From Zootoca vivipara (lineage: Eukaryota), in contig NC_083283.1 in NCBI RefSeq assembly GCF_963506605.1, positions 59,520,001-59,584,000 on the forward strand: DNA of 64,000 nt, in the 5' to 3' direction. Positions 6,393-55,657 of this stretch are shown piece after piece (position 1 is the stretch's first letter; each line of letters starts with the position of its first letter). Under the pieces are notes generated by a model, which was not told where the DNA came from, searched no databases, and worked only from the letters and a program-made list of their open reading frames with translations. A program made the translations under genes and the position numbers.

Positions 6393-7771
6393 TATAATCA
6401 GTATAAAACGATACTTTGTAAGGGGTATATATTTTTTGATCTCTTTGAATACGTATCAGTAAATAAATTTAAAAGAGAAAGAGGAGAAAGAAGGAAAACA
6501 GCAAGATAAAAAAATGGGTTATATGTTGCAGGAAGGGGGCTAAAGATCTCAAAAAGTTGGGACGCCCCTGTCATTCATGTTAAAAGTATAGTTCTATTAA
6601 ACCGTGCTGAGAAAGGGCTCAAGTGAAAAGCACAGAGTGGAGTTGAGTATCTCGGGAAGCTCTATAATTCAAGATGCCGTGATCGCCCTTAAAATGGGCA
6701 GCTCTCATCCTCTGGCTTCACATTCCTCCGCCTCTCAACCTGCTCCTTCCCTCCAGGGCCGCATCCCCGACCCATTGCTGCCTCAGCAACCCTCCCGCTG
6801 CCTTAAACTTAGCCTTGCGAGGCGGCGGCTGCCCGGAGGGCTCGTGCGCTTTTTGCCGCCTCCTCCCTTCAACTTGACACCAAATCCGAAGGGTGGAGGC
6901 GGGGGAAGCGGAGGAGGAGGAGGAAAACAAGCCGCCGCCGCTCGAGAAGCAAGCCTGAAGCACACAGTAAACTCCCTCCCCGTCAGCGCTTCCATCTGCG
7001 CCTGCGCGAACGCGTCTCGAATTCCTATTCCAGGCGAGCGAAGGGTCCCGAGAGAACTCGCGCATGACCGTTAGGAGGACATGCCTAGCTCCCGGCTACC
7101 CAACTCCCGATCCCCGCTCAGTGCCGAAGACGCTCGGCTATCTCCGTCCTTTTCCGACGCGCCCCTTCCCTCCTCCTCTTCCCCCCGCTAGCCCGCCCGC
7201 CCTCGCTCCGTCTGCCTGACCCAGGAATCTCAGCAGAGACTGAGGAGAGAGAGGGAGGGAAACGAAGGCAGGAGCCGCCGCCGCCGCCGCCGCGGGGGCT
7301 GGAAGATGGCGGTTGGGATGGGGAGGAGGAGGAGGAGGCGGCAGCAGCAGCAGGCACGGGGCTGTTGGAAAAGGCAACGAGGATCTTCGCGCAGGCGAGG
7401 CTGAGGGAAACGCCGCCGCCGCCGCGTCCCCGGAAAGCTGCTCTCGCCGCCGCCGCCGCTGCTTGTTGCCGGTTCGCCTCCTCTCGACTCGCTGCTTCCC
7501 CGCCGGCGTGAGATGGACGTCGGCGCCGCCTTGCTTCCCCAGCCGAGGGAGCCTCGTCGTCCTCGCCGGGGTTCGCGGCCGTCGCCTTGAGGTTCCGCCG
7601 CGGTCCTGAGGGGAGAGGCGGGCTCCGTCGCGCGCTGCCTGCGAGCGAGACTCGCTCTCGCTTCTCCACCCTCTGTCGCGAAGCGGCAGGGCGACCCCTG
7701 AGGGAGCTGGCTGGCTGCTGAGGGGGACGGGACACCCGGCGCTGCCTCCTCCTCCTTCGCCGTCAGGGAAG

Positions 7772-7825
7772 ATGTCGGATACGAAGGTGAAAGTGGCCGT
7801 CAGAGTCCGGCCCATGAACAGGAGA

Positions 7826-7826
<1 letters not shown>
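7772..7826 (+). CDS. KIF13A: KIF13A coding exon 1 ([19 protein letters not shown])
   Basis: ATG in aagATGT context at 7772; donor G|gtaata at 7827. Confidence 0.96.
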
Positions 7827-7892
<66 letters not shown>

Positions 7893-10800: not shown

Positions 10801-13800
10801 AATTCATAAATAATCAATTTTCTACCTACAAGTAGCCCTCAGAGTGGCTTACAGTCTATGCTAAAAATACAATGTATATCAATAAACAGTACAAACTACA
10901 GTATTTTAAATCCCTATGCTGGCTGCAGTCAGCTTTCTGATGCTGTGTAGATGTCTCTTTATCTTGAAAACTTTTCCTCTACACCCTGTATTTCTCTGTT
11001 CTCTGCTTGTGACCCTTTGTTATCTAAAGGTATTCTGGCTGCATCCCAAAAACATGATGCCCATTCTGACTTCCTTTCTTATGTCTGAAGCTACCTTCCA
11101 GATGTCCTCCACAAGTCCCTTTCTTCCATCAAATCCTTCATGAAAATCCACCTTTTCCATGAAGCCTTTGGAAGAACTCTTTAGAATTTAGATATAGTAT
11201 AGAATCTGTGAACCTCTTTCTGGACTTCCATCAGGATACTGCAACTGTTGCATCCCATTTCACCCACCTTTGGGATTAAGATTCTAACTTTTCTTCTTCA
11301 ATTTTCCACCTACACATTGAAAAAGATTGTTCTAATATGGATAAATTATTTTGTGAAGGAGGAAGATAGTTTTATATATTGTGTAGTGGTTATATTTTGG
11401 TTTTCGTCAAAGAACAAGAAGGCTGTTAACAACAATGCAAATAGATGGATGGCATTTATAATAGCTGATGAGGTTTGTTCTTTTCTTTCAAGCCTTAGAG
11501 GACGTTAGGAGGGAAAGGTTCCAACTCCAGGGAGTTGGTGTTTGTTGCAAAAGTCTTGACTGAAACTTATCTAAATGGAGTGTCAAGTGAAATGAGACAA
11601 TTACCAGCTGTCTGTTTTATCCAAAGGAATTATCAGCAGGAAAGAAACAGCTATGCAGGCGCTCTTAATATTACCTTACCTGCATGAGGTAGCAGATAGG
11701 ATAACAGCTGACAACAGTCTTTGTCTATAGGAAACTGTAAAAAAGAAATCTGATTTTGATCTTTTAAAAATTGCCTTTCCTGATGGAAGATATTGTTCAG
11801 CTTATGAAGTGCTAGCTTTGATGTGAGTAGGAGGTATATAGATATAGACAAAAACATTTATGAACTGCTTTAGCAGTGTTTCACTAATCTCATTCTAGCT
11901 ACCGTGTTTCTCCTAAAATAAGACACGTCTTATATTTATTTTTCTTTAAAAAAAATACATCGTGGCTTATTTTCGGGGGATGTCTTATTGTTACGTATGG
12001 TACGGGGCTTTCTTGCACCGCCCGCTGAGCCTGCTGCTGGGTCCCAGGGCTTCATGCGGCACGGCTGTGGCTGCTGCCGGCTCCTGCCGGGTCCTGCAGC
12101 ATTGCGCGCCGCCCGCTGCTGGGTCCTGTGGCTTCGCGCGCCGCCCGTTGAGCCCGCTGCCTGGTCCTGGGGCTTCGTGCGGCGCGGCTGAGGCTTCTGC
12201 TGCTGGCTCCTGTGGCGCCGCGCGCCGCCCGCTGCCGGGTCCCTGGGCTTCACGCGGTGCGGTGCGGCGCGGCGTGGCTGGGGCTGCTGCCGGCTCCTGC
12301 CGGGTGCTGCGGCTTCGTGCGCCGCCCGCTGAGCCCGCTGCCGGGTCCCTGGGCTTCACGCGGCGCGGCTGGGACTGCTGCCGGCTCCTGCCGAGTCCTG
12401 CGGCTTCGCGCGCCGCGCCGCACTGCGTGAAGCCCAGGGACCCGGCAGCGGGCGGCGCGCGAAGCCGCAGGAGCCGGCAGGAGCCGGCAGCAGCCCCAGC
12501 CGCGCCGCGCCGCACCACGTGAAGCCCAGGGACCCGGCAGCGGGCGGCACGCGAAGCCGCAGGACCCGGCAGGAGCCAGCAGCCTCAGCCGTGCCGCACG
12601 AAGCCCCAGGACCCGCTGCTGGGTCCCTGGGCTTCACGCAGTGCAGCGCGGCGCGGCTGGGGCTGCTGCCGGGTCCTGCGGCTTTGCGCGCCGCCCGCTG
12701 CCGGGTCCTGGGGCCCGTTCAGCCAGAGCTCCGCGCGTCACTGTGCTGGGGCTCCTGCTGTGCTGGGGCTCGGCGCAGCGCGAGCTGCTGCGTTTGCCGG
12801 CTCGCTCTGGGTCGTCCCGCTGGCTCCCCCAACACGTCTTATTTTGGGGGGATGTCTTACATTTTTTGGCCTTCAAAAGATCGTGCCATGGCTTATTTTA
12901 GAGGCACGTCTTATTTTAGGAGAAACACGGTAGTGACCTAGATATTATTCCAGTAGACTATCCTCCTAAAACTGTGCATTATTAAAACATCAGAGTTCAG
13001 GTTACAGGTTTGTGGTAGTGTTTCTGATACATATGAAATCAAAGTGGGATGAACTCTCACTTGTTCTTGTTAAGTATCATGCATACCTTTTAAATGTGTC
13101 TGTAGATATCAATGATTAAACTTCCAGCTGCTCTTTTTCTGTTCAGAGAAACTAGACACATTCCTTCTACAGATTTGGAAATATGAGAATAGATTTCTGA
13201 CAAAGACTTCATGTTGTTTTTGAATGAGATATTTTTCTGTTCAGTTGCACAGCTCTTGAGTTGTACAAAACCCTTTAAAAATAATTTATGTGTTTACACA
13301 AGCCAAATATCAGAGCAAAGGAAAATGACACAATAAATAATTAAGTGGATTAAATGAATTAAGTCATTATCATTTAAACAATTAAAACAGTCAAGTTAAA
13401 ACCATTTCTTATTACTTCTGTGTAATAGAAAATCTTTATGACTATGCATGCAAAAGTTGACCCAATGAAATATTACATTAATTTTGCAAACTTTAGAAAC
13501 AAATAGAAAGCTAACAAGTATCTTGTTTTCATTAACTACGGTAGTTACAAAGTTAACAACCAGGCAGCATGTTGTAGTTAGTGAGAGATTAGCAAACCTT
13601 TTAATATAATTAACACATGTGGCTACAGAAGGGATGATTATACCTATACCTGATTATTATCCTTGCAGTTCAGACAGATCATTAGAGGTGTGGAACAGTT
13701 TTAAATTTAGCATTCTGCTTGTTACGTAGTAAAAAAGAAAGAAAGTGTAATTCTGATACTTTGAAGTTTTAATGTTACGGTAGCTATATGCACCTCCATA

Positions 13801-16800: not shown

Positions 16801-19800
16801 CACATTTTTATTCTATTCATGCAGTTTGCCATTAGTCTTCTTGGGTACTCTAAAAATTGACGAAAATGATTGCAACTATTAGATGAATTGTTCTCACTGC
16901 ACAAAACCCCCAAACTAGTACATAATACCAGTTTCAGAATTATTAATCAGAACTGAAAGCTTTCAAAAGAAAAAACTCAAAGCAAGACTATGGGTGTAGA
17001 CCACCCTGCAGACTCCTTCCCCATTCATATCCAAAATCTGCTCAGAGCAGATTGAGACTCTGCGGAAGGCTGCAAGAGGAAGGAGAGAAAGAAAGGTGAT
17101 GTCCATTGTACAAGTGCACAGGCAGTGTTGGATGTAACACTAATCATTCAAGCTGCAATCCTGACCCTACTTACCTGGGATTAAGCCCCATTTAATTCAG
17201 TAGGATTTACTTATGAATAGATGTGGTTTGCATTGCACTGTTATGTTTTATGAACATAAAAAAAGTTCACAGTGGAATTTTTTCTTTTTTAAATATGCTT
17301 TTTATTAGTTTTCTTACTTAACAAAAACACACAAAAAATTAACAAAAATGATAAAATAATAACAAAAACAAACAAACAAAAAAATACATACATCCATAAA
17401 TCCATATGTTCTTACAAAAGAACTTATGCCACCATGTTCTTAATTCCCAATTCCTTATCTTCCCCAATAGACTTCCGTCTTCCTCAAAGCGGGTCTGTCT
17501 TATCTGTTTAATAAACTGCTTCTTTAATCATTTCACCATTTCTTCTGTTATCTGAATAGAATACTTATAACCCATTTTGTGGTTTGCGAAAATTAATCAA
17601 AGCATGTCCAGGTTTTAACTTGAAGGCACTTTTTAAAAAAATATTCTTTTTTTGAACTTTGGGTTTGGCTATCTCCTAATTGTCTCTGTCATTTTTGCCA
17701 GTTTGAGATATTCAAAAAAATTATCCTGCCATTCCTCTTTTTTTGGTACTAATTCTCCTTTCCAATTTCTGGTACTGGTAATTAATATTCTTGCTGCTGT
17801 TGTAGCCAGGGGCGTACCCAGGATCAAAACTGGGGGGGGGGCAAGCCATGGTCGTTCAGGGGTGGGGCCAAGGCACGGGAGGGGAGGGGTCACAAAGTGG
17901 GAATGTGGGCGGGGCTACAGGGCCAGCGGGCCCGACGACTCTGCGGCGGTGGCTGCAGCCACTAAATGAAACCCCTAAACTCTCTCACACGAAACCCCCC
18001 TGCTCTGAAGCAGGGACGTCTCTAGGCCCGGGTCCGGTGGCGCGGGGCGCCAGGCCATCAGGGGCGCCGCTGCGCCCGCTGAGAGGCACAGCGGAGGCCG
18101 CCCCAGCCGCACCTCTCAACTGTTCAGTGGCTTCAGGCTGCTTTCTGGAGGCGCGCAGGCCTGGGGCCGCCTCCGCCATGTGCAGGGGCATCGCAACAGG
18201 GGGCGGGCAGCACCCCCTGGCCCAGGGCCGGCCCTACGGCCAGGCTGGGTTGCGCAGGGCTCCAGCCCTCCAGGCGGCAGCCGTGCAGTGAGCTGTGCCG
18301 GGAAACGGGGCGGGGTGGGGGCACGAGAGGGATCCGTCACACCACGGGGTCAGGGCGCCAGGTATGCTTAAGACGGCCCTGCTCTGAAAACACCACTCCC
18401 ATCCATTTATGGCTAGCCACCCCCCTGAAAAACCCCTTTGGGCCCCGTTTTCCTTCCTCCAGGTCTCCCTGAAGCCTTGCCAGTTCCCATCCTATATATC
18501 TGGGATGGGGAAGGAGCTCAGAGGTCTGCTAGTCCTGGGGGGCCATCCCCCCGTGGCCTGGGAGGATACTGGGGACCCCCCAGCTAAGACCCTCAAAGAA
18601 GAAGAAGAAGCTACCACCACCGCCTCCCCATCGCAAGGGAGCAAAAGATGGGAAAGGTGGGGTGGCGCAGCGCAGGCGAGTGAGCCCCCCCCAGCTACGA
18701 CCCTACGGCGGCGACAGCGGCTCCCCCGCCCTCAACGCCCCTCTCTCGGCAGGGGCAGCAAGGGAGAGCTGCTGGGGGGGGTTGCATTGCAAAGAAGGAA
18801 ACAGCAGCCAATGCCCAGAGAGGGCAATGCATGCAGGGGGAGTGGAGAGCTGTGCCGCCCCCCCAAGGCAGCTCCTTTCCTATTGCCGGGGGTGGGGGGG
18901 CGGCGAGGAAGGGTCACTGCCGCTGGGCTACTCCTGCCGCCGGCAATCCGGCGCAAACGCCCCCACGCAGCTTCCTTGCAGCAGCCACGACCACCGCCTT
19001 CGGGCGCCGCCCCCCACTCCTCCTTTGCGGGCTTCTGCCCGCCGAGGCTGAACTGGCTCCTGTCGGTGCACTTCCTCTCCCGGCCCAGGAGGAGTCTCAG
19101 TAGCAACTCCTAACTCAGGGGTGGGTAGGGGGTGCGGAGGGGGGAAGGGGGGAAGGGGGCGATTCCCAGCCCGCGGCGCCGACGATCGCAGTGCAGCCTA
19201 CCGGAAGCCAGAGCGCAGCAACGGCTGCAACCAATGCAGGGAGCCGCGTCTCCTTCGCTTGCCAGCCCAGCAGAACTCTTTGTTAGGATAGGTTGCCGCC
19301 CGGCAGGGCTTTCCATTGGGAGGCGCGAAGGCTTTAGTGGGTGGGAATTGGTGCAAATGTAGGCAGGACGGGCTGAGAGGAGGAGCCGCCGTCCAGGAGC
19401 CACGGCACCAGCAGCGTTTCCTCCCCCCTCCCCCCCGTGTCAACAAGCAGGGCGCCTGCACAGGGTATTTGCTTCCCTATTCGGGCCCACGGTTTGGTCT
19501 TCTAGCGGGGGCAGCTGCACCCCCCTGCCCCATGCTGGGTACACCCATGGTTGTAGCATATAAGAATACAGTTGAACCACCACCTCTTCTTACGGTCGTT
19601 CCAAGTCACAACTGTGGCAAACCCGGAAGTAACTGGTGGATTTGCCGCCATTTGCGCATGCGCTGGAGCGGTGATCACCATTCGCACATGCGGAGAAGCG
19701 GGCAATCGCCGTTTGCACATGTGCAGAAGCAGGCAATCACCGCCTGTGCACAACGGCGCCTCTCTCAGCAACCCGTTTCAACCTCCGGACAGACCTCCAG

Positions 19801-22800
19801 AACGGATTATGGTCGCAAATAGAGGTTCCACTGTACTGTGACAGCTCGACATACGAATGACTCGACATTCAAATTTTTCGAGTTACGAAGGGAAAAAATG
19901 GGGGCGGGCTTACAAATTTATTCGACTTACGATCGGGCCCTCACCGCCTCGGTGCCCCACGCTCGCCACCGCTGTGTGCCAGCCTTGCGCGGGATCGGGC
20001 CCTCGCCGGCTCCGCTACCGATCTTCGCTGGATCGGGCCCATTGCCACCGCAGCCACCGGCCTCCCGCCGGCCTCCCCACCTGCCAATCTGGCCATTTTT
20101 TAAGGCCCCGGAACGAATCAATCCATTCTTAATGCATTCCTATGGGAAACATCGTTTTGACTTACGAATGTTTCTACTTACGAATGTGCATTCGGAACGG
20201 ATTAAATTCGTAAGTAGAGGTTCCACTGTATTCTCTTTTTTCATTTGGAATATCTGAATCTAAAATGTCTAAGAGGAAGGCTTCTGGTTTCTTTATGAAA
20301 GTTTGCTTAAACATTTTTTCAATTCCTCATATATATGGCAATATCTCAAAAATTCTTAATTATTTTGCAACCACAGTGGGATTTTTTCTTTTGGTGGTTT
20401 CTGTGACTTTTTATTGCACTTCAGGGTTATTGTGAAAGTTGAGATTCTTAGTATATGTGTCAAGGCAACACACCAGTTACTCTGGAGCAAGAAAAAATGA
20501 TATTTGCTAAACAAAAACAGAAGAGTTGCTGTAGAATTGAACTTTTGTCTTAACCGAACATGGAATGTAGTACTATCCATTTTTTAGTTGGAAGTCCAAA
20601 TCCATTTTATTTCAGTTGGGTTTACTTCTCTAGTAAGTGTGCAGCTGTACTCTTTTATTTATCCTTTCTGTTATTGTGTAGTTTGGCTTGTTTCTGTATT
20701 TTCCAGAAGGAGATTATTTTTATGCTTGCTGTAGAAATGCATAGGGAGCCTTTTTTGGCTTTCTTCGTATGTAAGGTCTGGCTCTTGAGCCAATTTTGTT
20801 TTAACTCTGCCATCTTTCATAGCCCGAATTATGTGCTTCTTTTTGTATAGATGGATGAAACTAAGGATGTTTTGTAAATAAGAATGGCTTGGCATTAGTG
20901 CAAATCAATGTGCTTATTCCACATTCAGTGGACAATAGTATATAAATTATCCATTGCAATCTGCATTGTGCTGTTGATGGATTGTACACTGGGTGTGCAA
21001 CTGAACAGAGTGATCTGTATTGTGAAATATATTGCCATTGGTACAACTTTAATCTTGGCACTTGTTCTTGCTGAATATTCGGGCATAACTAGGAACTTGC
21101 CTGATTGTGTGTGACAAACAGAAATAGTAACCAGGCAAAAGCCAAAAGAAAAATAGTTTGCCATTTGATAGAGTGTGTGGAATCATCAAAAGAGACTCCT
21201 TAACAGACTGTAGGAATCGGATAGGTGTGTAGATGGACAGGTGGTCTTTTAGATAAGCTGGCCCTGTATAGTTTTGGTATTATGCACATATTTCAGCATA
21301 TTGACCATGTCAGCAAATCTTCACAGGGATCTCAAGACACATACAGAACAGAACTCAGGACATAGACTACAGTTGAAGTAATATGTATAAAATGTATATA
21401 TTGAGGCTGCAGGCTTTAACATACCATCAAATAATTTACAAAACTCAGGCAACAGAGCAGAAAGTATGAGAGGGAGGGACACAGAATTTAGAACAGCAAG
21501 CACATAGAAGATGAAGCATCAGAGGGCAACATGAAAGAAGCACTGAGGAGACAGGGACCAGAGGGTAATACATTTCACGCATGAAACTTTCTACTATCTG
21601 TTGAGATATCTACCATTGGTTTTTAGCAAATTCAGTGCTGTGCACATTCGTTCGGACTATTATTTGTTCCAACACTGGGAGAGCCCCACCTGCTTACATG
21701 GTTCAGACACATTATTATTCTTTCTACACCTCCACTGCTGAGCTGCTTGCCCCAAATTCCCAAAATAGGAATCTGAAAGTGAGAGAGAGCTTGAAAAGCC
21801 CAAGCAGGCATCAAAGATATATTTATTTCAAAGATTGTGAAAGCAGTTCCACATGCATACACAACTTGCAGGTTTACGGCTTCACAGTACACACACATGC
21901 ACAGCTATGCATGTGTGAAACGAGCAGTGTTTAATAATAACAATGGGAAGAGAGGCTTTAGGCACTGAGGCAGAATAATCTGTCTACTGGTTGACCTTGA
22001 TTGACCCATCCTTGATTTATACAAAGTTACACAGGAAGCTGCCAGTATACCAGGAAAATTTGCCCTTAGATTAGCTTCACATTGTTCCTGCTAGAAAGCA
22101 TTTTCAGTTTTGTAGTAGTCATATCTTTTTTGGTGGAAAGCTTTTATAAATATAGAAAATGGTTTCTCAGAGTTTCAAGCTATTAACTACTGAGTATGCT
22201 ATTTGAATTTATGAAGCAGCCATATACTGAATTAGATTAGACCATGCTGCCTGAGATTTTTTTTTATAGGAACTGGGATTTTGTACATGAAAAGCATATG
22301 CTTTATGACCAAGTCAGTGGCACCAACTTGAATAAAATATTTAGGGAGGCTGCAGGAAGGTTGCAGGAAGGACGGAGAGAGGGAGGGCACCCTGGGAGAC
22401 AGGTGGGCGATTTGGTGCCTTATCTGCGCTTTCACGTGGTGGAGGAGGAGGCTGAGGTGGCTCAACACAGTCAATTTTAGGTGCCCCCAGCCTGCCAAAA
22501 CATTTGCGGGGGCTTAGAGTTGAACCACTTAGAGTTGGCGCCTGTGGTGGTTGTATCCAGATATTGTTCCTATATGGATATCTAATCCCACTGGAGCAGG
22601 GGCGTAGCCAGGATCAAAACTAGGGGGGGGGGCAAGCCATGGTCGTTCAGGGGCGGGGCCAAGGCACGGAAGGGGAGGGGCCACAAAGTGGGCGGCGCTA
22701 AAGGGCCAGCGGGCCTGATGACATCGTGGCGGTGGCAGCAGCGGCCACCTTGTGCTTCTGGGGCTGGTAGCGTTGGCGGCTACCCTGCTTGGCTGGAGAG

Positions 22801-25800
22801 GACGGGAGGGTCGGGCAGGCGAGAGGGGGTGGCAGGGCGGGCGAGGGCGAGGCAAGACACGGCCGCAGCCACGACGGCTCCGAGGCGTTGCTGCATATCA
22901 GCATAATATTTCAACCATGGTTCAAGCCCCACCTTAGGAAAAAAATCCTGCATTGCAGGGGGTTGGACTAGATGACCCTTGTGGTCCCTTCCGACTACAA
23001 TTCTATGATTCTATTGATATATTACCATAGCATATGCATCATTCTGCTTTCTTGAATTGTCCTACTCCTAGGCATAGCATCCAACTCCTAGAGGCCTAGG
23101 TGCCCCCCCCCCAATTATTGGTAAATACCGTATTTGAAAGAGTCATCCCCCCATGTTGATGGGCTTTCTATGTGGGGCTTATCTGCCCCCCCCGTATTTT
23201 ATTAAGGATGGAAGAGGGAGGGAAGGAAGGAAGAAATAGAGAGAGAGATAACTCATATTTGTGGGTGTCTCTGGATGACGCTGTGATGCTAGAACTCTGC
23301 AGCAAGAGGACAGGAGGGTCGGGCAGGCGAGAGGGAGTGGAAGGGCGGGCGAGGGCGGGGCAAGGCATGGCCGCAGCCACGACGGCTCCGAGGTGTTGCT
23401 GCATATCAGCATAATATTTCAACCATGGTTCAAGCCCCACCTTAGGAAAAAATCCTGCATTGCAGCGGGTTGGACTAGATGACCCTTGTGGTCCCTTCCG
23501 ACTACAATTCTACGATTCTATTGATATAGTATTACCATACCATATGCATCGTTCTGCTTTCTTGAATTGTCCTACTCCTAGGCATAACAGCCAACACCTA
23601 GAGGCCTAGGTGCCTCTCCCCCCCCCAATTACTGGTAAATACCGTATTTGAAAGAGTCATCCCCCCATGTTGATGGGCTTTCTACCGTGTTTCCCACATT
23701 TTAAGACACCGTCTTATATTTATTTTACCCAAGAAAATAAGCCTATGGCTTATTTTCGGGGGGGTGTCTTTTTAATTTTTTTTTAACTGTAATTACGGCA
23801 GCCAGCGTTGCTGCTGCTGGGTTCCGGAGGCAGCCTGCAGGGTCGGTGCCCAGCTGCGCCGGTGCTGGACACTGGAGAGAGCAGGAGACTGAGCAGCCAC
23901 TGCGGCATCGCGCTGCCAGAGACTCGCAGCCACTGAGGAGCTTGCGGCGCCGGGGCTTGCGGGCGGCTCTCGCCTTTCCGCCCTTTCTCCTGCTCCCGGG
24001 GGAGACGTGGCTTCTATTCCCCATTGCCAAGGAAACAGCCCGGGGGAGAGACGCCAGAGCTGAGGCGCCCCCCGCCCGCGGATCCCACGTGCCGCCGAAA
24101 ACGGCAATGCTTAGGGCCCCCCACTCCTCGCCCGAAGTGGAGTAAGGCCCCCCGAGCGGTCCAGGGCTTGCTTCCGAATGCGCAGGGACAGGACTGCGCT
24201 GTTAAACTCTTTGCAAACTCCTTGCCCAAAAGAAAGCTGTCCTGCAGAGTGCCGGATCGAGGAGCCGGTCTGCAGAGTCAGCGCCCAGCAGCGCGGCGCT
24301 GGATTGAGGAGGCGGTGCTTCGTGCGGAGCTGCTGGGCGCCGACCCGGCAGGCCGCTTCCTCGATCTGGCGGCCTCCCGGGTTGGCGCCCAGCAGCGCCG
24401 CGCGGAGCACCGCCGGTCTGTAGAGTCAGCGCCCAGCAGCACGGCGCTGGATTGAGGAGGCGGTGCTTCGTGCGGAGCTGCTGGGCGCCGACCCGGCAGG
24501 CCGCTTCCTCGATCCGGTGCTCCGCACGGCGCTGCTGGGCGCCCACCCGGGAGGCCGCCGGATCGAGGAAGCGGCCTGCCGGGTCGGCGCCCAGCAGCTC
24601 CGCACGAAGCACCGCCTCCTCAATCCAGCGCCGCGCTGCTGGGCGCTGACTCTGCAGACCGGCTCCTCGATCCGGCACTCTGCAGGACAGCTTTCTTTTG
24701 GGCAAGGAGTTTGCAAAGAGTTTAACAGCGCAGTCCTGTCCCTGCGCATTCGGAAGCAAGCCCTGGACCGCTCGGGGGGCCTTACTCCACTTCGGGCGAG
24801 GAGTGGGGGGCCCTAAGCATTGCCGTTTTCGGCGGCACGTGGGATCCGCGGGCGGGGGGCGCCTCAGCTCTGGCGTCTCTCCCCCGGGCTGTTTCCTTGG
24901 CAATGGGGAATAGAAGCCACGTCTCCCCCGGGAGCAGGAGAAAGGGCGGCAAGGCGAGAGCCGCCTGCAAGCCCCGGCGCCGCAAGCTCCTCAGTGGCTG
25001 CGAGTCTCTGGCAGCGCAATGCCACAGTGGCTGCTCAGTCTCCTCTCTCCCATGCCCAGCGCTGCTGGGAGCCGACCCTGCAGGCATGGCTTATTTTCGG
25101 GGTATGTCTTATATTTTACAAAGGCTTTAAAATCCTGCCATGGCTTATATTATGACTCCGTCTTAAAAAGGGGGAAACACGGTATGTGGGGCTTATCTGC
25201 CCCCCCATATTTTATTAAGGATGGAAGAGGGAGGGAAGGAAGGAAGAAATAGAGAGAGGGATAACTCATATTTGTGGGTGCCTCTGGGTGATGCTGTGAT
25301 GCTGGAACTCTGCATGTACAGGAGCCTTGTAAGCAGCTTTCTCTCTGCTTGATTTACAGCAGGCACGTCCAACAGGTAGATTGTGATCTACCAGTAGATC
25401 ACTGGATGTCTGTGGTAGGTCACTGGCACCCCTAAAAAAAGCTCACCCAAAATTTTCCTCCTCCCTCAAAAAAGTTGAACTATGACCTGAAGCCCTAAAC
25501 AAAAATGGGCCTCCCTCCCTCCTAAAAGAAGCTCAACAAGTTTGACCTAAACCCCCCAAAACAGGGCTTCCCTTCCTTTAAAAAAAACTCAACAGCTTTG
25601 ACCTGAACCCCCCAAAAGGGGGTAGATCACCCCCCGTTTTAAAGTCTGAGTAGATCAGAGTCTCTTGGGAGGTGGCCACCCCTGATTTACAGTATACAGA
25701 TGCAGGAGGAGGGGCAGACTGGAACACCAATGCTTTTTATAAACATCACTGTGTCTGTCAAAGCTACAGCCCCCCCTTTCTTATTCACTTCTTTTTAGCC

Positions 25801-28800
25801 TTGCAGAGCCACCTTAGTCAAATTGAATCCTCTGAGTCTGCACCCTCATTAAATCACCAATAGAACTCTTAATGCTCCTGAATGCTCATTAACAACTCCC
25901 ACTTAAGAACAATAGGGTGAAATGGTCAGCTATCGAATCTTGCCTGGGGATATATGCTCCATTGTCTTAACTGCTTAACTACTGGTAGCCACTTTGCTTT
26001 ATTTATTTGATGTGTTTTTGTTACTGCTGTGCCCCCCCCCCAGCAAGCGGAGACTTAGCTGCTCTTGCTAAAGCAAAGCCCTTTCCACTTCAGTTTTTGG
26101 AGGGGAAAAGTGCTGGTTATGGTCTGTAAAATACATTAATTTTTTTGCTTCTAGGGGGGGCAGCTGCCCCCTCTTGCCCCCCTGCCTACGCCCATGCACT
26201 GGAGAATATATTCCTCATTCAGATCCTGTTTTTCAGATGTTCAGTAATATATAAGAATAGACAAATAGTAGACAAAACCTATGTTGGCACTCCACCACCA
26301 GTAATAAATTAATTTAGCTTATTAATGTGAATGTAATTGAAATAGTTGTCTAAACAGCAGTTTTGCTCATCTCAAGCAGTTCTCTCACATGCTTCTGCTT
26401 TGTCAGTGCAGAATTCTAGTGACTGTGTCTATCCGGAATAACACATGAAGTGTTGTTTCCATTATCGCTCAGGAAATTGAGATTGTTGTGTGGAAACATG
26501 AGGCATGGGATGTTTATTTCTTCTGTTATAACACTGTTTCTGGAAATATCATTAAAGGCTGGTCCATGCATGTGTATATCTCACTAGATATTTCACCTGA
26601 TTTGGCTTAATTTAAGTGTCTATGCTGAGGTGATACAAAACTTCTGCCTGTAGTGTGTGTTCTGTGATGGCAGTACATACAAGTCACTTTTTTAAAAATG
26701 AAACTAAATAGATTTTATTTCAATTAAACATGCTAGCATCTTAGGACAGCCAAGGTAAATAGAACAATCCCAGCAGATAACTAGCCCAGTAATCCAATCA
26801 GCTGAACACAATGCAGTGTGTTAATGACAGTAGAAAGGTACCATGACATGTCACAACACATACTTTTGAAACAGTCTCAGCCAGCTACCATGCACAGCCT
26901 TATGTACAAAGAGAGAAAACCAGTTCTGCCTAAGATCTCAATGGATGCATGCAGACCAAATTGACTGCTGTTTGATCAAAACTGACCAAAGCATGACGCA
27001 CTGTAGTAAATGTGCTTGCAATATGTTGCAATCTCAACTAGAAACCACAAATGAATATTGCTTATATGTTGCACACACAAGTCATAAACTGATTGTGTAG
27101 TTGTCCACCCTTATGCAGCTCTCTAATTATGTCCAGTTACTTATGTGAAGAACTAGTGGCCTCAGATGGTATTGAAGATTGACATCTGCATCAAAATATT
27201 TTTATTTTATTTTAATGGCTTATTGCAAGGAGCTGAAGATGCTGCACATTGTTCCCCCCCATCTCAATTAATCCCTACAACAACCTTGTGAGGTAGCGGT
27301 AGGTTAGGCTGAGAGATGGTAACTGGCCTAAAGTCACCCAGTGAACTTCATGGCTGAGTGGGGATTTGAATCCTGGTCTCCCAACACTCTTAATAATGTA
27401 TCCAGCACTTACATTTTTATGTCCCATAACTGAGCTATGGAAATTATATTTAATATAATTTTAAATTTAATTAAAAATTAGTATATTTGTATCTGCCAAT
27501 CAAACAACATGGAATTTACCTTCCATCTAATAGAAAAACACTATTTTGTTCAGGAACTACCAGCACTTGCTGTGGGAAGTTCTGGATACTTACATCATAT
27601 GGAAGTGTAGAACTAGAATGGGAGCTTTTGACCCACCAGGCAAACCTGGTCCACCAGGCCTTCTCACTTGGCCTGCAAAGCCGTTTTGGGGGAGCCATGT
27701 CCCTGCTCCCCACCCTACACCTGATGTCATACATTTAGTCAGGTGTGGGGCAGGTAAGGGTGGGGTTTCAAAAGAGCAAACAGGAACTTAAAGTGGCCTC
27801 CAGTTTGCTTCTTTGCTAGAACAAGGTGTACTTCCTTCCAGAGGAGTGCAAATTGCTCAAAGAGGGAAAAGCAGCTTCCATCTGATGGAAACCATTTCCC
27901 CGTCCCAACAGTGCTCTTTGAAGGTCCATGTGCAAGCCACTTCAAGCAGCAGCATGGGAGGGGTATGAAAGGGAGAATTCTTTCTTTCCTTCAGTTCTCT
28001 TTCCTGCTGGGGGAGGTAAGAGAAGAAAGCCTTCATTTTAAAATGCTGACCTTTTTTTCAGAGTTCCCTTAGCAAAATGGAGTGCTGAACAAGGCATGCT
28101 CCCAACTGCTCATCAACTGATGGGCAGTAGAATCATACCTTGCTCAATGAAAGAGAAGCAGAAACCACCTCTTCCTTCCAGCACTGTTCTTTGCAGTGCC
28201 CTACATGGGAATGAAGGGGGGAATTCCTGAATTAATACTGTACAGTAATTATATTCTCTCCTGTAAGTTGTACAGGTGTGTTTCTTCTTAAAATCTTTTT
28301 GGTATGCATTATTTTTGGAAGAAAAAAAGTATTGCTTTCCTAAGTCAATAAATATTGAACTCACTGATCTTTCCAACCAGAATAATTTATGGCGTATACA
28401 GAGTGTTCTAATAGTTTCAGGCACTAACCATATATTCCCTTTCTTTTTAATGCTTTCCAATTCTGTGGATGATATATTGACAATCCTTTTCTGCCATTGC
28501 TGTATTTCCATTCCTCAGAAAATCACCTAAGGTAAGTGACTGATCTTTTAAAATACTGTTCCCTATCAAAATAAAGATAATTTGCTCACAATATGTAGCA
28601 TGTTTTTCCACATTCAGTTCAATAGCTTTGCTTTCTAATGGGATTTAGAACCTGCATTATTTCTATCTAAGTTTGTTCTACAACCTGGTGCAGAGAAAAA
28701 GTTTGGAAGTTTCCAGCTCTGGTCTGTCTTTGTAATATGAAATTGATACATTCAAGTATGAATTTTTGACAGTCACATAAGACTGAGGTGCATGTTAAGC

Positions 28801-52800: not shown

Positions 52801-55657
52801 CTAGTACAAACAGTTTTTGTTGTTGTTAGTATTTTTGCACACAGGGAATTTAATTTTGGTCTTCTGTAAGGAACACAAAATTGTTGAAAGTGTTGGTACT
52901 AATTTATTTAAAAGAGGAATAAGCTTTTGATGTTCATAAGAGGTAGGTTTCTGTACATAGAATCATAGAGTTGTAGAGTTGGAAGGAACCTCAAGGGTCA
53001 TATAGTCCAACCCCCTGCAATGCAGGAATCTCAGCTAAAGCATTCATGACAGATGGTCATCCAACCTCTGCTTAAAAACCTCCAATGAAGGAAAGTCCAC
53101 TACCTCCTGAGAGAGACCATTCCACCATTGAGGAGCTCTTAGAAAGCTCTTTCTGATGTTTAGTTAGAATCTCCTTATAACTTGAAGCCATTGGTTTGGG
53201 TCCTAGTCTCCAAAGCAGGAGAAAACAAGTTTGCTGCACCCGCCATGTGACAGCCCTTTAGATATTTGAAGATGGCTGCCATATCTCCTCTCAGTCTCCT
53301 CTTTTCCAGACTAAACATACCCAGTTCCCTCAACTGTTCCTCATAAGGCTTGGTTTCCAGACCTTTGATCGTCTTGGTCGTCCTCCTCTGCATACATTCC
53401 AGCTTGTCAATATCCTTCTTAAATTATGGTGCCTAGAACTGGACACAGTACCCCAGTTGTGGTCTGACAAAGGCAGAATAGAGTGGGACTATTACTTTCC
53501 TTGATCAGGTCACTATGCTTCTGTTGATGCTGCCTAGAATATCATTAGGTTTGTTTGCTGCTGTATCACACTGTTGACTCGTGTTAAGCTTGCAGACTAC
53601 TAAGACCCCTAGATCCTTTTCACGTGTACTACTGGCAAGCCAGGTGTCCCCCATCTTATATTTGTGCAGCTGGTTCTTCGTGCCTAAGTGTAGAACCTTA
53701 CATGTGTCTGTATTGAAATACATTTTGTTAGTTTGGGCCCAGTTCTCCAGTCTGCTCAGGTTATCTTGCATCCTGATTCTGTCTTCAGCAGCAATGGCTG
53801 CCACTCCCAGTTTGGTGTCATCTGCAAATTTGATGAGCATCCCTTCAATGTTGTTGTTTAGTCGTTTAGTCGTGTCCGACTCTTCGTGACCCCATGGACC
53901 AGAGCACGCCAGGCACTCCTGTCTTCCACTGCCTCCCGCAGTTTGGTCAAACTCATGTTCATAGCTTCAAGAACACTGTCCAACCATCTCGTCCTCTGTC
54001 GTCCCCTTCTCCTAGTGCCCTCCATCTTTCCCAACATCAGGGTCTTTTCCAGGGTGTCTTCTCATGAGGTGGCCAAAGTATTGTAGCCTCAGCTTCAGGA
54101 TCTGTCCTTCCAGTGAGCACTCAGGGCTGATTTCCTTCAGAATGGATAGGTTTGATCTTCTTGCAGTCCATGGGACTCTCAAGAGTCTCCTCCAGCACCA
54201 TAATTCAAAAGCATCAATTCTTCGGTGATCAGCCTTCTTTATGGTCCTTCAATACCTTCATCCAAGTAACTTAGAAATAGGTTGAACAACAACAGGCCCA
54301 GGGCAGATGCTCTATATACACTCTAGTGCTCTACATATACTCTTGTCTTCTGCTATTATCTGACCTGCCTTGTTTAGACATGTTGCACAGTGGTGAAATG
54401 GGGATTTGAATATGACTTTATTGGGTGTAGCTCATAATTATTTAGCACATCCATGTTGGATCACTATGCTACCCTGTTTCTCATATTTTAAGACATACCC
54501 ATAAAATAAGCCATAGCAGGATTTTTAAGCATTCAAGGAATATAAGCCATAACCCGAAAATAAGACATAGTGATAGGCACAGCAGCAATACCGGCCATGG
54601 CAGGAGGAGGAGGAAAAATATAAGACATCCCCTGAAAATAAGCCATAGTGTGTTTTTTTGAGGAAAAAATAAATATAAGACATGTCTTATAATATGAGAA
54701 ACACGGTAAATCATTTTTGTTTTTGAAATTTTAATTGTCTTTTTAAAAAAAAACAGATGAATAGACTCACTGGAAAAAGAGGTGATCCTTTCTATGAAGC
54801 ACAAGAAAACCACAATTTAATTGGTGTAGCGAATGTCTTTTTGGAGTGCCTTTTCTGTGATGTTAAACTTCAGTATGCAGTACCAATAATTAGCCAGCAG
54901 GGGGAGGTAAGTTTCAGTCTCTGGTGTCATCTATTCTGTTTTGCTTATGAAGGCAAAACTTTGCTATGAGCAGCACATATGTACTAAGGAAGGAAAGGCA
55001 CAATAAATCCACTATTAATGCATCAATGATGTCTTGCTGCATACACCTGCAATAAGATAGCAGTCAGAATAGGCACACAGTCTATGGACAAAATAAGATT
55101 GGTGCCACAGAAACATTAAATGGAAATGCTTTGAGTAGAGGGCAAATGACCAAGCCACTGAATTTCATGTACTGACAACCAAATTTTTGACTGCAGTTCA
55201 CTTGCTCCACCAATGTTCTAAATCTAAAAGTCAAATCAAAGGGGAAAGTTGTGAGTACACTGAAGGCAATTCAAAACAACTATCAATAACTTCCATTTTA
55301 TTTTTAAAAATGTAAATTTGGCCTCTGTCCTGTATACATGAAGGAGCGTCTCCACCCCCATCATTCAGACCGGACACTGAGATCCAGCGCCGAGGGCCTT
55401 CTGGTGGTTCCCTCATTGCGAGAAGTGAGGTTACAGGGAACCAGACAGAGGGCCTTCTCAGGACTGGCACCCGCCCTGTGGAATGCCCTTCCAACAGATG
55501 TCAAGGAAATAAGCAGCTATCCTATTTTAAAAGGACATCTGAAGGCAGCCCTGTTTAGGGAATTTTTTAATATTTAATGCTGTATTGTTTTAATATTCAA
55601 TTGGGAGCCGCCCAGAGTGGCTGGGGAGACTCAGCCAGATGGGCGGGGTACAAATAA

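Follow-up and report, generated by a model that had tools for sequence, protein, structure and literature searches.

Within a stretch of 64,000 nucleotides of the lizard Zootoca vivipara (NC_083283.1, 59,520,001 to 59,584,000; hereafter the window, numbered from its first letter), two transposons of the hAT type stand about 3 kb apart, with the same ends and unrelated interiors. The question raised by this locus is where these interiors come from; a preliminary description, made from the sequence alone, had proposed that they were captured from the host genome. Element A, a non-autonomous hAT, extends from 17807 to 19549 and is flanked on both sides by the 8-bp target site duplication (TSD) GTTGTAGC (17799-17806 and 19550-19557, 8/8). 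Element B (22597-26196) is bounded in the same way by CACTGGAG (22589-22596 and 26197-26204, 8/8). All features are given on the forward (+) strand unless said to be unstranded. The left end common to A and B comprises 146-153 bp at 86% identity and the right end ~50 bp at 80%, and the bounds, the perfect TSDs and the shared ends first proposed were thereby reproduced. With regard to the hAT terminal inverted repeat (TIR) motif YARNG (PMC3014272), the left end, CAGGG, fits and the right end, CATGG, is off by one base. As had been stated, neither element encodes a transposase: no transposase-like frame was seen in A or B among 66 open reading frames (ORFs) of at least 70 amino acids (aa) inspected by eye, and two ORFs of A searched against Pfam gave no match. 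In Rfam, nothing reached the gathering score, the sub-threshold hairpin matches being confined to the palindromic insert of B.

The explanation that we consider best, and hold with good confidence, is a large lizard hAT family in which some members carry pieces of host DNA from single loci, for the most part gene starts in CpG islands. Template switching in break repair is the likely means of their acquisition, and the transposase of a rare full-length copy the likely agent of their spread. Both A and B belong to this family, each in a multicopy subfamily of its own. In the genome analysed (1.44 Gb in 48 contigs, labelled C1, C2, C7 and so on), 1,459 occurrences of a 27-nt left-end motif were counted, against none of its reversed control; family size, as defined by this motif, is at least 1,459 left ends. 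Among 70 consecutive left ends sampled on C1 (of 100 listed), 46 are completed by a right end plus TSD of 8 bp in the DNA fetched; these closures, together with the empty control, indicate that the family ends are not due to chance. Sorted by interior, the 70 sampled elements fall into the B-type (33), a 680-bp GC-rich type (9), a simple-repeat type (6), a group including a 3.5-kb type (6), the A-type (4), a group with transposase-end remnants (3) and singletons (9).

The A-type subfamily comprises ~140 copies at 88-93% identity (an interior 23-mer of A has 137 genome places). When A was used as query, 32 of the 39 other scored hits were near full length at 88-92% identity, and an own TSD at 7/8 bases or better was present in 8 of 9 A copies checked, which bears out the idea that such composites move as units. 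For the distal interior of B, 1,118 candidate genome places were obtained (~1,100 B-type copies), the usual length of the B-type being 1.5-2.6 kb. Of the two possibilities first offered for the proximity of A and B, an abundant family or local hopping, the latter is not needed, since A and B belong to different subfamilies and chance alone would give ~7 pairs within 5 kb over the whole genome.

Within A, the family left-end module (17807-17960) consists of the TIR and a G-rich subterminal region, its first ~54 bp being 91% identical to the transposase-bearing element L180. It is followed by a nested hAT-type miniature inverted-repeat transposable element (MITE) of 371 bp with a 7/8 TSD (18011-18381, unstranded), by CpG-island-like cargo for which no donor was found (18390-19271), by a captured host fragment (19272-19500) and by the family right-end module with its TIR (19501-19549). 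At 14 of the 41 other A-type places, and in L046, the nested MITE is precisely missing; it is a later insertion into the A master. The ~1.5 kb of CpG-island-like cargo initially attributed to A includes this MITE. Over 30 copies, the majority sequence of the A cargo has a GC content of 0.68 and an observed/expected (o/e) CpG ratio of 0.62, and CpG sites of A-type copies are 11.7% diverged versus 2.1% elsewhere, that is, a decay 5.6 times faster.

The captured fragment of A has a parent in the genome. A junction motif was found at 3 places, two of which are A copies; the third, L192 (G000:C1:44.20 Mb), is a CpG island without family ends, which matches window positions 19272-19500; the ATG of a gene with a Myb/SANT domain (PF13873, E 2e-21) follows ~90 bp downstream. 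The piece in A, the last 230 bp of its cargo, corresponds to the promoter/5' region of this gene and stops ~90 bp before the ATG. Compared with the majority of 56 copies, L192 shows 15 differences in 240 columns. The donor holds 22 CpGs, the majority sequence 18 and single copies 13.1 on average, and ~21 bases of the donor are missing from the element copies. A is a promoter-capture lineage, with one donor proven.

Other donors, here meaning loci without family ends, came from searches with low-copy interiors, all candidates being scored unless noted. Nine end-less donors were found in total: L192, L125 (C7) and L131 (C1; 27/27 candidates scored), L183 (C3; 6/6), L294 (C5) and L295 (C6; 8/8), L321 (C10) and L328 (C1; 23/23), and L381 (C14; best 40 of 162 scored, 20 fetched). 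Three of them run directly into conserved coding exons, those of CYP2R1, the Myb/SANT gene and AP4E1. L131 is the CYP2R1 promoter with the start of exon 1 (PDB match, E 9.5e-16), and the L381 piece stops ~30 bp before the AP4E1 ATG (PDB match, E 4e-9). Since the pieces include DNA upstream of ATG or TATA and intron-like DNA, capture at the DNA level is indicated. Among the 70 elements sampled consecutively on C1, 13 contain a piece of the nine donors, which extrapolates to ~270 donor-bearing elements genome-wide if C1 is typical. Pack-TIR and Pack-TYPE elements are recognised by a parent locus and by a multicopy composite with distinct TSDs; an unlinked parent was found for A (L192) and eight more donors for sister subfamilies, and multicopy composites with distinct TSDs for both A and the family.

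Captured exonic sequence is carried by the CYP2R1-bearing subfamily and by an HMG-box type. The latter, the 3.5-kb type, holds an HMG-box coding fragment with a stop, which, judged by the intron positions that we assume, looks intron-less; 39 of its best 40 scored copies (of 59 candidates) are 98-100% identical. In L073 (G000:C1:63.76 Mb), the broken HMG-box fragment (element positions ~1130-1360 and 2215-2255) is split by an insert resembling a long terminal repeat (LTR), and L047 is a rearranged 3.5-kb form without this LTR-like insert.

Several donors may be combined in one element. E126 joins pieces of L125 and L131 with an L328 stub and an L321 stub, thus four donors from three contigs. 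Its shorter ancestors are separate multicopy subfamilies, and each step of the chain has its own copy set: the L321 piece; the L328 piece with the L321 stub; the L131 piece with both stubs; and the L125 piece with all three. Because a short 5' L321 stub stays beside the left end in several descendants, new cargo appears to have replaced the middle of the old; the L183 lineage gained its new cargo on the right, which argues that capture had no fixed polarity. A CpG-island-like 500 bp was present within 1.25 kb in 9 of 9 donors versus 3 of 31 background stretches, and this is suggestive of a bias of the donors towards CpG islands and gene starts.

Some neighbouring observations were made during this survey. 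L184 (G000:C19:20.12 Mb) contains part of the L183 piece without family ends; L184 and L400-L416 carry family cargo without one or both ends, possibly in other transposon families, which suggests cargo exchange between families. L163-L174 represent a repeat unrelated to the family and at least 660 bp long; it has 993 candidate places, and many of its copies are identical. The family member L293 (G000:C1:52.53 Mb) lies ~600 bp from another CpG-island gene start, which we take to be API5-like.

A full-length partner was found at C7:80403877-80410060. This element of ~6.2 kb has both family ends, an 8/8 TSD and a 769-aa open frame with the domains DUF4371 and Dimer_Tnp_hAT, and answers to the autonomous hAT with the same TIRs that had been envisaged. 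The frame was reached through a 53-residue remnant in a deletion derivative and, among 8 transposase matches, the C7 copy is the only one with the whole N-terminal query open. In the full-length element, the transposase stop is followed downstream by the family left end. Another element, whose transposase is broken, has kept its two ends, and these are 82-91% identical to those of A and B. A protein identical to the C7 transposase is recorded in NCBI under a lacertid lizard, and its nearest named relatives in other species are proteins of insects (67-74%). These relatives, together with the lack of cover in a sequencing run of a related organism (X13, see below), hint that the family is lineage-restricted and possibly horizontally acquired.

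Judging from the sequences, a C7-type transposase would move all subfamilies in trans via the shared ends. Cargo would be gained when repair after excision or a fork break takes unrelated open-chromatin DNA as template, joined by short microhomology. The new piece would replace part of the old cargo and leave stubs, a composite keeping both ends would found a subfamily, and its copies would become methylated and then lose CpG.

B represents a lineage with cargo consisting mainly of other transposon DNA. The copy in the window is the ~2.1-kb subfamily form plus a private 1.5-kb insertion (23685-25182, unstranded), a young TA-flanked element of Tc1/mariner-pogo type with a large internal palindrome, whose 530-bp inverted arms are 99% identical and whose TIR resembles TcMar-N3/N5_AC (PMC3014272). 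This young element has at least 21 other places at 99-100%, is present only in this one of the B copies examined, and leaves an empty junction in 16 B-type places. The cargo of ~3.4 kb first assigned to B must be reduced accordingly, as 1.5 kb of the 3.6 kb are this insertion. Shorter relatives of the young element lie at window positions 11899-12932 and 54470-54708.

The tandem duplication and the nested MITE previously described in B are both present. The tandem unit of ~510 bp occurs in two copies (22798-25314), the second interrupted by the young element, and numbers 1 to 3 in other B-type copies. The nested hAT MITE has a perfect 8-bp TSD (25360-25684, unstranded) and was inserted after the subfamily arose, since it is missing from 16/16 B-type loci (MITE-free query). 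What had been read as truncated short interspersed element (SINE) remnants look like 3' tails of long interspersed elements (LINEs), presumably of CR1 type (22946-23014, with a second copy at 23453-23521), which have matches elsewhere in the window. A GC-rich module occupies 22743-22890; no donor search was aimed at it.

The AT-rich cargo of B (23017-23309, 25186-25359 and 25706-25946; span 23017-25946) has pogo/Tigger homology and resembles an intron-like stretch just upstream of a pogo/Tigger transposase ATG. In addition, a pogo-like end remnant is found at 26074-26134, and B also keeps a pogo-like subterminal motif. A junction motif with 24 places, one of them leading there, gave access to end-less homologues of B (L219, L220, L221, L237 and L241; 71-83% identity). 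A host origin outside transposable elements was not found for the B interior, these homologues being pogo-associated; they include dispersed copies and zinc-finger clusters near the start of C2. Because of its pogo-derived DNA, CR1-like tail, tandem unit and nested transposons, B is mostly a transposon mosaic. The proposal that hAT elements captured and moved genomic fragments thus holds for the family, through its nine donors, and for A, through L192, and is not supported for B.

L267 (8194-9501) and L268 (G000:C2:13.66 Mb) contain a 436-aa open pogo/Tigger frame after a splice-acceptor-like site, and the exons upstream of this frame are, we assume, Myb/SANT-like and KRAB-like; this frame is possibly a host-transposase fusion. 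Pogo copies also vary in their 5' interior (L221 versus L241).

Could the family be explained by nesting only, that is, by short MITEs that grew as known repeats inserted into them in situ, without any host capture? This was the case that the preliminary description had set against its own proposal, and it does explain much of B, where the young TA element, the nested hAT, the CR1-like tail and the pogo-derived DNA are covered by it, as is the MITE in A; moreover, the B-type is the largest sampled class. For the family as a whole it is refuted by the nine end-less donors, of which three run into conserved coding exons and one belongs to A, and we regard it as very unlikely. The direction of transfer might also be reversed: the donors would then be truncated copies of the element that had arrived at host promoters or been co-opted by them. 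Truncated copies without ends do exist (L350), and insertion close to gene starts does occur, as in L293 and in A and B, which have a CpG-island promoter at 10-15 kb. However, the island continues past the matched piece in 7 of 9 donors, one piece holds CYP2R1 coding sequence, the L192 donor is richer in CpGs and has extra bases, and run X13 adds a weak hint in the same sense, so that this reversal appears extremely improbable.

It is unlikely, in our opinion, that the host pieces were taken up by end bypass or between two ends flanking host DNA, an element inserting at a promoter and later leaving with the neighbouring DNA. L090 and L034 are left ends without a right end in the fetched DNA, followed by ordinary or CpG-rich DNA, and capture by local hops has been described for plant Pack-TYPEs (PMC8903248). 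Against such a course, the donors are intact; in ten stretches of 9.5-10 kb beside eight of them, a family end was looked for and not found. Furthermore, new pieces are embedded in old cargo, stubs of which remain to the left and to the right, an arrangement in keeping with replacement by copying.

Capture by template switching from gene starts, our preferred reading, has several observations weighing against it. The search for single-copy, end-less donors succeeded for the last 230 bp of A. For its remaining ~0.9 kb, no donor was present among the matches listed (100 of 137 motif places), a family end was found at 29, 18, and 40 of 41 places fetched in the hunt for an A donor, and the left-junction motif of A has 3 places, all A copies. 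The sole place without an end among the 41, L350, was rejected as a donor because it looks like a truncated copy, and L276 because it is a full element copy. In DNA searches with A or B as query, the best 40 scored candidates were dominated by element copies; B yielded no unique host donor, although one would not be rankable among ~1,100 copies. Neither was a donor seen for the L071 type among the scored hits, nor for the HMG-box type among the best 40 of 59 scored, none of which was fetched; the L045 interior, for which no donor was found, also occurs in loci without the family left end. The overlaps at four junctions are 2, 2, 4 and 5 bp, read by eye and without a null model, several other junctions being unreadable. 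Finally, the excess of CpG islands does not amount to a clean test, since the queries were mostly picked for GC-rich cargo and 5 of 21 window tiles outside A and B also pass the CpG-island criterion; in the case of L294, the piece has few CpGs (o/e 0.04), and the island near it is possibly a repeat.

With these points taken into account, the elements described here form a real Pack-type hAT family, notable for its copy number, its multi-donor chains, its apparent gene-start bias and its surviving open transposase. We also lean, by little more than an even chance, towards a bolder form of this reading, in which a recently active, possibly horizontally acquired hAT family of a vertebrate works on a large scale as a Pack system like those of plants. 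Such a family would repeatedly copy DNA from open germline chromatin, with a preference for CpG-island promoters and for first exons, would stack chimeras serially and would have spread a few hundred promoter fragments, its open transposase being extant.

Concerning the surroundings of A and B, a CpG island (window 7000-7830) is situated 10-15 kb upstream of them and contains a first coding exon at 7772-7827 (ATG ~7772), which we take to be a kinesin-3/KIF13-like start; the two elements are probably located in the first intron of a kinesin-3-like gene. Two adjoining TA-flanked MITEs are found directly to the right of A (19567-20230). A contig of run X2 contains a related empty site of A with a single copy of the TSD 8-mer, and because this site lacks A and both MITEs, the insertion spot of A seems to be a pile-up inside an older repeat. 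In run X13, there was no cover at 88% identity on the A ends, the A interior or the B left end, a weak hint that the family is absent from that organism. RNA reads, 116 and 242 from ~6% of two runs, were low in number and mixed, deriving from many copies, and no RNA dataset was listed as containing the unique stretch searched. In run X22, 74 RNA reads pass into a B-type left end, all from a single flank that is consistent among them, so that at least one B-type copy is likely part of an expressed transcript.

To call this an undescribed system was too strong, since lizard hAT capture (PMC3014272) and frog multicopy Pack-hATs (PMC8277862) are in print. Hobo elements of Anolis incorporate genomic DNA (Novick et al., PMC3014272). 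Like the present family, hobo_AC is a lizard hAT with 8-bp TSDs and non-autonomous subfamilies of 2-3 kb that share ends and differ in cargo; the cargo of its derivatives includes genomic DNA with transposable element fragments, a description that B fits closely (PMC3014272). The two differ in TIR and in transposase type, which is here DUF4371 with the hAT dimerisation domain, and the sections of the hobo_AC account used here name no donor loci, gene starts or multi-donor chains (PMC3014272).

Four multicopy Pack-TIRs, from frog and alligator, and a GC preference were reported in a screen of 100 animal genomes (Tan et al., PMC8277862). Our family is similar to Pack-hAT-N8_XT of Xenopus tropicalis, which captured the 5' region of a host gene, has an unlinked and end-less parent and shows several TSDs, and the FoSTeST template-switch model and GC-rich preference of that study parallel what is seen in the lizard (PMC8277862). 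As described there, the frog Pack-hAT has 3 copies and one donor, whereas the lizard subfamilies reach ~140 copies and up to four chained donors. For plants, Pack-hATs, multi-locus cargo and open-chromatin parents have been described (PMC8903248, PMC5861414), and plant Pack-MULEs and Pack-TYPEs are comparable in their multi-locus chimeras, their GC-rich open-chromatin parents and, in plants, their mobilisation in trans (PMC5861414, PMC8903248). Unlike the plant Pack elements in these sources, the lizard family has a vertebrate host, its cargo is mainly promoter or 5' untranslated region and not coding, and its copies show CpG decay. In the literature searched, which did not extend to the supplements of PMC8277862 (possibly with a reptile case) or to Repbase and Dfam, no promoter capture by a squamate hAT was found; in the parts of these sources used here there was likewise no precedent for this scale, for multi-donor chimeras or for a gene-start bias.

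How TIR transposons acquire host DNA is unsettled, and multicopy cases in animals had been considered very rare (PMC8277862). With its young captures, intact donors, intermediate subfamilies and open transposase, this family makes the route of capture and its chromatin bias testable in a vertebrate. If the gene-start bias is true, the dispersed promoter copies could seed new transcripts or affect the silencing of the donor genes.

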